A stretch of 64,000 nt of DNA from a virus (lineage: Duplodnaviria > Caudoviricetes): the IMG/VR virus record IMGVR_UViG_3300027278_000003; one strand, given 5' to 3'. The first letter of the stretch is position 1; every line of letters begins with the position of its first letter. The notes beneath the pieces are model-generated. The model worked only from the letters and a program-made list of their open reading frames with translations. It searched no databases and was not told where the DNA came from. Both the position numbers and the translations under genes were made by a program. Shown here piece after piece: positions 59,764-59,859 of this stretch.

Positions 59764-59859
59764 GATGGGCTGGCATGGTGTGCTATGCTGTTTCGTTAAA
59801 TCTGGGCAGGCGGATGAAACAGAGTGTTCAAGTTGGGTTCGAACCCCACCCCATCTCCA
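59764..59859 (+). ncRNA. Aberrant tRNA-like RNA with expanded anticodon arm
   Basis: GATGGG/CCCATC acceptor with T-CCA end, TTCGAAC T-loop, 6-bp D-like hairpin, TGTTTC/GAAACA arm enclosing 21 nt. Confidence 0.6.

Follow-up and report, generated by a model that had tools for sequence, protein, structure and literature searches.

The locus and its predicted RNA fold

The stretch of DNA analyzed here (64,000 nucleotides, referred to as the window) corresponds to bases 133712-197711, read on the minus strand, of an IMG/VR virus record of 342 kb with a completeness of 92%. According to ARAGORN, this phage genome has 28 tRNA genes and one tmRNA, which is permuted and of the alpha type. UUA and UUG are in ordinary use, at 12 and 13 per thousand codons, respectively. 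Positions 59764 to 59859 of the window are occupied by a 96-nt gene for a tRNA-shaped RNA, which belongs to a family with six sequence variants. The gene lies on the plus strand, as do all of its parts given below.

When G59764 is taken as position 1, standard tRNA numbering holds to position 31, and U8, G10, C25 and the stem strand GUUUC at positions 27-31 are tRNA-like landmarks. The acceptor 5' strand consists of GATGGG and C7 (59764-59770), and its first six bases pair with CCCATC (59850-59855), which is followed by the discriminator U59856 and an encoded CCA (59857-59859; the 3' strand as a whole is 59850-59859). C59770 stands opposite C59849, a C.C mismatch that is invariant in the six variants. 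The T arm (59834-59849) has a 4-bp stem (UGGG/CCCA) and the loop UUCGAAC (59838-59844), followed by C59849. Since only this one base lies between the T stem and the acceptor 3' strand, the acceptor/T stack comprises 11 layers. The discriminator is U in five of the six variants and A in the remaining one, which was found on two contigs (L082/L121).

The D-like hairpin GCATGG-TGTG-CTATGC (59773-59788) can be drawn in two registers. An initial annotation of the locus had read it as a Sec-like 6-bp D stem, which the family does not bear out: the sole variable position, 13 (59776, U or A), gives an A.A opposition in three of the six variants, and RNAalifold favors the other register. In that alternative, 59771-59775 form 5 bp with 59781-59785 around the loop NGGUG, and position 13 and a GG are left in the loop. 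All other bases of the D hairpin are invariant, and none of its pairs covaries.

The anticodon arm departs furthest from a tRNA. Its outer helix is formed by UGUUUC (59789-59794) and GAAACA (59816-59821), 6 bp that enclose 21 nt in the window and 21-24 nt across the family; the GAAAC partner of the 27-31 strand thus comes after 21 nt, compared with 7 in tRNA. The enclosed sequence begins with a 5' bulge, GUUAA (59795-59799), which is invariant apart from its form GUUAAA in the L023/L030 type. Together with A59800 it supplies UUAAA, the same bases as U33-A37 of tRNA-Leu(UAA). An inner hairpin follows (59800-59815), with the stem AUCU/GGAU and the invariant loop GGGCAGGC (59804-59811); relatives carry one or two additional bases 5' of the loop. 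The arm interior of all variants can be written as GUUAA or GUUAAA, AUC(U/C), zero to two extra bases, GGGCAGGC and GGAU. RNAalifold offers an alternative inside the arm, in which GUU is paired with GAU. In both registers, the arm reaches about twice its length in normal tRNAs, and there is no 7-nt loop.

Between the anticodon and T arms lies a variable region of 12 nt, GAGUGUUCAAGU (59822-59833). It is nearly invariant in the family (GAGUGUUYAAGY, with Y at two positions), and neither RNAfold nor RNAalifold predicted a stem within it in any fold. All six variants have in common, without change, what sets the element apart from tRNA: the C.C mismatch, a T stem of 4 bp, a variable region of 12 nt, the bulge and the loop.

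All motifs listed by the initial annotation (acceptor, U-CCA end, T-loop, D-like hairpin, outer arm and the ATCTG/CGGAT hairpin) are present where it had placed them, and the RNAfold minimum-energy fold is the structure that it gave. The fold energy of the window sequence is ordinary when compared to shuffled sequences (z = -0.19, RNAfold), so that this sequence alone does not go beyond chance. The annotation had also named ARAGORN as a check. The program does call the gene, as tRNA-Phe(AAA) in a frame shifted by one base; the call is weak, with three of the four anticodon-stem pairs being G.U. CCA is encoded in all 27 other tRNAs of the phage, which favors the frame of the initial annotation over the shifted one.

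Two readings other than a tRNA-like RNA were considered and rejected. An ORF starting from the ATG at 59765 ends after 17 codons in three lineages and is not conserved. A terminator or attenuator made of the D hairpin and a U-run would have three G-C pairs and three to four U, and the U-run is a strand of the covarying outer stem. With regard to a target of the loop, no complementary GCCTGCCC was found on the element's strand of the phage genome.

A conserved family in marine phages

The family was found by exact-pattern scans with the GGGCAGGC word in IMG/VR and metagenomes. Its six distinct sequences come from 14 marine contigs of viral or metagenome origin, and these include the record of the window. 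A covariance model (R1) built from three of the six variants scores all six with 106-124 bits and ordinary tRNAs with 25 bits or less. According to R1, the element is single-copy in the 342-kb genome; a weak match at G000:82283-82380 was rejected as a second copy, as it is not tRNA-like. The family probably sits in marine jumbo phages whose hosts are likely alphaproteobacteria.

Further searches did not extend the family. Scanning IMG/VR with the invariant patterns of the 5' half and the 3' half returned the same six contigs and one chance match in coding sequence, and these patterns detected no insert-less or divergent allele in IMG/VR. Bacterial genomes gave 29 pattern matches, none of which fits R1. 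In cultured phages, blastn matched the tRNA-Ser alone and not the element. The neighboring decarboxylase gene yielded no close relatives when used as query, and the neighboring helical protein yielded three loci at 41% identity, all without the element. A 21-mer spanning T arm and acceptor retrieved only an unrelated tRNA-Tyr, and no Rfam family matches the element.

Identity of the element between phages is 88-93%. For the same phages, the corresponding values are 90-94% for tRNA-Arg(UCU), 71-87% for tRNA-Ser(ACU), 64-80% for tRNA-Leu(UAA) and 35-70% for shared proteins. The flanks of the element cannot be aligned among lineages, with the exception of one motif. As the family is narrow and its members are at least 88% identical, the invariance of the 8-nt loop is only weakly significant.

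The substitutions that do occur respect the fold. In the alignment of the six variants fitted to the model, 98% of pair cells are paired, and broken pairs occur in the D stem only. Two-sided changes were found at four pairs (acceptor 2:71, outer arm 26:44 and 31:39, and the closing pair of the T stem), compared with zero to one in controls in which the register was slid; two pairs show changes to or from G.U. The acceptor pair 2:71 changes from A-U to G-C in L119, the other five acceptor pairs being invariant. In the outer helix, one pair differs by U-A to C-G and another by C-G to U-A, and there is additionally one change from U-A to U.G. The inner-stem pair 40:49 is U.G in the window and C-G in the other five variants, and the T-stem closing pair is U-A in three variants and A-U in three.

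Conservation above that of the neighboring tRNA-Leu and tRNA-Ser, in combination with compensatory changes, identifies a selected RNA gene and not decay. The initial annotation had proposed a non-canonical, deliberately expressed gene and had asked whether its conservation goes beyond random tRNA decay; that the gene is non-canonical and deliberately kept, beyond such decay, is borne out by the comparison of the six variants on 14 contigs. At the level of sequence comparison, the family is shown to be a conserved gene under strong purifying selection. The comparison also shows a predicted RNA fold in which an acceptor helix and a D hairpin are accompanied by a T arm of 4 bp and by an anticodon arm that is extended by a 5-6-nt bulge and a 4-bp hairpin.

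A putative late promoter and the genomic setting

A T4-type late-promoter motif, TATAAATA, is located upstream of the element (59751-59758, plus strand; core ATAAATA at 59752-59758), and G59764 would be its +1. The initial annotation had remarked on this perfect motif as placed for a start at the first G. Its position, six bases before G1, holds. The 8-mer itself is not enriched in the genome, with 13 copies compared to 16 expected. The 7-mer ATAAATA does behave like a promoter element: 35 of its 70 copies on the gene strand are intergenic (50%, compared to 12% for composition-matched permutations, in a genome of which 7% is ORF-free DNA), and the intergenic copies lie mostly 21-47 nt upstream of ORF starts. 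The late-promoter motif class (nATAAATA) is present at a fixed spacing, with G1 six bases after it, in five lineages with unrelated flanks. It takes the forms TATAAATA, AATAAATA, CATAAATA and ACTAAATA, and L119 has a TATAAT-type box. The sequences farther upstream are a tRNA-Ser, a tRNA-Met, an ORF or 320 nt of non-coding DNA. A gene for a gp55-like late sigma factor is present in the phage genome (G000:C1 about 290600-291500, minus strand; L179 1318-2196); its product of 292 aa matches phrog_12791 with E = 5e-80 and T4 gp55 itself weakly.

Downstream, the gene that follows varies by lineage. A second perfect ATAAATA is located 3-9 nt past the CCA in four of five lineages, which indicates that this gene is transcribed from a promoter of its own, and a strong terminator follows the element of the L034 type at a distance of 64 nt. 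No terminator separates the element from the next ORF, 4-41 nt away, in four cases (the window, L010, L082 and L119). The ORF of the window starts 12 nt past the CCA, and the element would therefore double as an mRNA leader there. In L010, the element is found 11 nt after a tRNA, so that it might there be released from a polycistronic transcript, and what looks like a promoter might be spacer sequence. We describe the element as an autonomous module with a late promoter of its own, as predicted from the motif spacing, the sigma factor, the terminator and the varied downstream genes.

A holin-like membrane protein of 54-68 aa with a conserved TWDGA...AYGAWT motif is encoded after the element in three lineages (L010 3825-3989, minus strand; L119 2117-2281, minus strand; L034 3725-3922, plus strand). 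In L119, this gene is followed by an amidase-like ORF of 322 aa, and the two probably form a lysis cassette. The homolog in the phage of the window is located at 9557-9763, about 50 kb from the element.

The window also encodes a split heal-and-seal RNA repair kit of the T4 type, with a stand-alone PNKP-type HAD 3'-phosphatase (32472-32921, 103 bits), a P-loop kinase (34043-34579) and an Rnl1-type RNA ligase (34729-35859, 92 bits). A metallophosphoesterase is encoded at 30695-31246. At 30-4759, the trio PrkA - DUF444 (YeaH) - SpoVR was identified by strong Pfam matches; the closest phage homologs of the DUF444 (YeaH) protein are those of uncultured 600-kb phages and of Ralstonia phage RsoM2USA.

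Other tRNA genes of the phage and its relatives

One other tRNA gene of this genome is interrupted. Outside the window, a tRNA-Thr(UGU) (G000:C1:70389-70506, minus strand) carries a 42-nt hairpin between anticodon positions 35 and 36. Its body is canonical, with a 7-bp acceptor, a 5-bp T stem and a standard D loop, and it is the only Thr tRNA of the phage (ARAGORN, introns allowed). An amber-suppressor tRNA (CUA) is encoded just outside the window (G000:C1:132737-132811, minus strand); the ORFs of the phage otherwise follow the standard code. A tRNA-Cys(GCA) of 82 nt (63818-63899) has U73 and a variable region that is unusually long for a cysteine tRNA.

A tRNA-Ser(ACU) with the loop CUACUAA and A34 is found beside or near the element in all relatives that have the tRNA cluster (window 59658-59747; L010 4222-4309; L034 3072-3162). 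A34 in a serine tRNA is unusual for bacteria. The same tRNA is encoded by Xanthomonas phage XaC1 (L003 1503-1590), and in two Salmonella jumbo phages, Munch and 7t3, a tRNA-Ser was matched by its identity of 84%. About 130 nt after its tRNA-Ser(ACU), XaC1 contains an unannotated tRNA-like sequence (OR258281.1, about 306197-306270; L003 1717-1790) that lacks a D arm and has an acceptor of 7 bp, A73-CCA and a T arm of 5 bp. In this sequence, a GTGTT/AACAC stem surrounds 16 nt that include CUCUAAA, a loop of the amber-suppressor type; the sequence was called by neither ARAGORN nor R1.

Relatives also have tRNA-Ile(UAU) genes of 92-94 nt with an extra arm and a 94-nt tRNA-Leu(UAA) (L034 1405-1498 and 1724-1817; L004 5003-5094). 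These long genes may correspond to the five-stem allo-tRNA(UAU) forms (PMC5389517).

Comparison of the element with established tRNA classes

We compared the element with the established classes of tRNA. The Rfam model RF00005 does not match positions 59764-59859 at its gathering threshold (cut-off 29 bits); the same model gives 46-68 bits for nine other tRNA genes of the window. In a permissive Rfam scan, the best match within the tRNA clan is tRNA-Sec (RF01852), with 17.3 bits and E = 0.45 compared to a cut-off of 47 bits.

The canonical 12-bp branch of a 7-bp acceptor and a 5-bp T stem is replaced by six Watson-Crick pairs, the C.C mismatch and a 4-bp T stem, and the canonical 5-bp anticodon stem with a 7-nt loop (Y32, U33, R37) is replaced by a bulge and hairpin of 21-24 nt. 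tRNA-Sec was rejected on the 11 layers of the stack compared to a 13-bp branch (8/5 or 9/4), on a loop without UCA and on a variable region without a stem. The 8/4 or 9/3 branch of allo-tRNAs does not fit, as only seven bases separate the T stem from the discriminator. An eighth acceptor pair, U8-A85, is excluded as well, because U8 is fixed while position 85 covaries with 71.

None of the intron classes considered accounts for the arm. For an intron of the archaeal or eukaryal type, there is no bulge-helix-bulge, and the inner stem abuts the outer stem at the 3' border. The splicing endonuclease PF01974 and RtcB are both absent from the 342-kb record. A group I intron is rejected as the insert measures 14-17 nt compared to a ribozyme core of about 200 nt or more, and there is no Rfam intron match. 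The tRNAs with mini-introns of the Lak type have a canonical body, whereas the body of the element is irregular. With regard to aminoacylation, LeuRS needs A73 under the E. coli identity rules, and CysRS needs U73 with GCA at normal distance. The element combines U73 with GCA in its loop, and a CysRS identity based on this combination is weakened by the A73 variant on two contigs.

Alternative explanations

The initial annotation had speculated that removal of 14 nt would leave a UAA loop. In a corresponding explanation, the gene would encode a pre-tRNA with a protein-spliced mini-intron of 14-17 nt after position 37; some endonuclease would cut it out, kinase/phosphatase and Rnl1 would rejoin the ends, and the product would have the loop GUUAAAU with the anticodon UAA. 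On paper, such an excision is possible. When performed in silico, it results in the same 7-nt loop with U33 and A37 in six of six variants, and ARAGORN then calls a tRNA-Leu(UAA). The bulge and hairpin look like an intron after position 37, and the phage encodes the Rnl1, PNKP-type phosphatase and kinase needed to reseal a cut loop. Additionally, the genome contains the canonical tRNA-Thr with its 42-nt hairpin insert, and unexplained tRNA introns have been published for Lak phages (PMC6784885).

Several observations nevertheless disfavor the excision. The loop would carry G32, compared to C or U in 27 of 27 normal tRNAs of the phage, and the body with its 11-layer stack and stemless 12-nt variable region is irregular, unlike that of the split tRNA-Thr. 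The discriminator, U in five variants and A in one, does not agree with the A73 needed by LeuRS, and such a choice of U or A would not be expected of a tRNA that is held to one synthetase. This phage, like the relatives for which the tRNA cluster was recovered, has a canonical tRNA-Leu(UAA). The presumed intron changes no faster than the presumed exons, the pattern scans of IMG/VR gave no intron-less allele, and the splicing would have to do without a bulge-helix-bulge, a PF01974 endonuclease or RtcB. We therefore regard the mini-intron as possible, if on balance unlikely. Should it be right, the element would be another case of unexplained protein-dependent tRNA splicing in phages.

A further explanation, which we consider distinctly unlikely, is that the element acts in cis as the 5' leader of late transcripts, where a tRNA-shaped module would stabilize the mRNA or mark processing of the 5' end. 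It is in keeping with G1 as the putative +1 of a late promoter, with the closely following ORFs that lack an intervening terminator in the window, L010, L082 and L119, and with the fact that the next ORF in three lineages encodes the small holin-like membrane protein, followed by the amidase-like ORF. Yet the downstream genes vary, and the holin-like gene of this very phage is far from the element. The second ATAAATA past the CCA in four of five lineages and the strong terminator of the L034 type also speak against a shared transcript. Moreover, an encoded CCA and an invariant arm would be needless for a leader.

The element could also decode, as an irregular tRNA akin to tRNA-Sec or allo-tRNAs that acts as a missense or stop suppressor through the UUA/UAA exposed in its bulge. 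Traits known from allo-tRNAs are its U73, its T and anticodon stems of 4 and 6 bp, respectively, and a possible long D stem with tetraloop, and irregular tRNAs have been reported in tRNA clusters of alphaproteobacterial phages (PMC5389517); the phage also has the CUA suppressor tRNA. The stack of 11 layers, however, is short of the 12 of allo-tRNAs (8/4, 9/3) and the 13 of tRNA-Sec, and U8 is fixed although its would-be partner covaries with position 71. Further, the V-arm stem and the 7-nt anticodon loop are missing, and the score with the tRNA-Sec model is far below the cut-off. We hold such a decoding function to be very improbable.

Finally, a decaying, functionless tRNA pseudogene, with which the unremarkable single-sequence fold energy and the weak Phe(AAA) call with its G.U-rich anticodon stem would agree, is refuted by the comparative data, i.e., conservation above that of the neighboring functional tRNA-Leu and tRNA-Ser across phages with 35-70% protein identity, compensatory helix changes and the same upstream motif in differing genomic contexts, and is the least credible of the readings considered.

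A candidate non-decoding tRNA mimic

The reading that we prefer, and to which we give about an even chance, is that an independent gene here gives rise to a stable mimic of tRNA that takes no part in decoding and acts in trans. The initial annotation had likewise suggested a tRNA mimic, with a possible role as a decoy or synthetase inhibitor. A late promoter of the gp55 type would drive transcription from G1. With a start at this base, no RNase P cut would be needed for an RNA whose acceptor/T stack is abnormal, and the 3' end would be trimmed as far as the CCA that the gene encodes. Normal decoding, and probably also aminoacylation, would be prevented by the rebuilt arm together with the 11-layer stack.

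Acting in trans, such an RNA may occupy a protein that normally binds tRNA. Contact could be made via the tRNA shape, the GUUAA bulge, which resembles the U33-A37 face of tRNA-Leu(UAA), and the GGGCAGGC loop. A host enzyme that targets tRNA would be the likeliest candidate partner, as the heal-and-seal kit of kinase, 3'-phosphatase and Rnl1 suggests that hosts attack tRNA, and as defenses of this kind are countered by tRNAs of phages (PMC10264068, PMC11555353). Conservation extends even to stems, which are free to vary in the neighboring true tRNAs, and this suggests a partner that reads much of the RNA surface.

A more specific version of the non-decoding mimic, which we put forward tentatively and think rather unlikely, is an anti-defense decoy. 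An abundant late mimic would present the U33-A37 face of tRNA-Leu(UAA) to a host defense enzyme that cuts or modifies tRNA. With a hairpin in place of the other half of the loop, the enzyme could be bound without the RNA being processed like a normal loop. Phage tRNA genes have been linked to the escape from tRNA-targeting defenses, the tRNAs concerned still being able to decode (PMC10264068, PMC11555353). If true, the decoy would be an RNA inhibitor besides the replacement tRNAs and the heal-and-seal kit of the phage. A family that is more tightly conserved than neighboring tRNAs, with a rebuilt decoding loop and a putative late promoter of its own, points to phages making tRNA look-alikes for a non-decoding job, and the family is small, well defined and cheap to synthesize.

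Comparison with known systems

The nearest named analogs that we considered are T4 rnaC (species 1) and rnaD (species 2), which, like the element, are small non-coding RNA genes among phage tRNA genes. T4 rnaC has a tRNA-type T arm, GGGTTCGAATCCC, as does the element. The T4 RNAs are not homologous to it: an unfiltered search of the T4 tRNA region with R1 gave a match to the rnaC T arm alone (7.6 bits). They are 119-139 nt long and lack a full cloverleaf with a rebuilt anticodon arm, whereas the element has such an arm within 96 nt. To our knowledge, the function of rnaC and rnaD is still unknown.

A tRNA-shaped elbow with an acceptor-like helix serves non-decoding uses in the bacterial Y RNA YrlA, in the tRNA-like domain of tmRNA and in the tRNA-like RNAs of murine gammaherpesvirus 68. 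In YrlA, the ends lie in the Ro-binding stem, a topology unlike that of the element. tmRNA has SmpB as its partner and is charged with Ala via G3.U70. We know of none among these RNAs that has the arm or the sequences of the element.

The allo-tRNAs share with the element the 4-bp T stem, the 6-bp anticodon stem, the possible long D stem with tetraloop and U73 (PMC5389517). Where the element has 11 layers, an unpaired variable region and a bulge with hairpin, they have a branch of 12 bp (8/4 or 9/3), a V-arm that is long and paired, and a normal 7-nt anticodon loop. Some allo-tRNA(UAU) form five-stem junctions, failed to decode in E. coli and were suggested to be unused in translation (Mukai et al., PMC5389517).

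The "enigmatic" hairpin introns of Lak megaphages (PMC6784885) and the split tRNA-Thr of the phage itself resemble the element in that their anticodon loop contains a short hairpin, of a size too small for self-splicing. While the split tRNA-Thr and the Lak tRNAs have canonical bodies, the element has an irregular body and G32, and its insert shows the same degree of conservation as its other parts.
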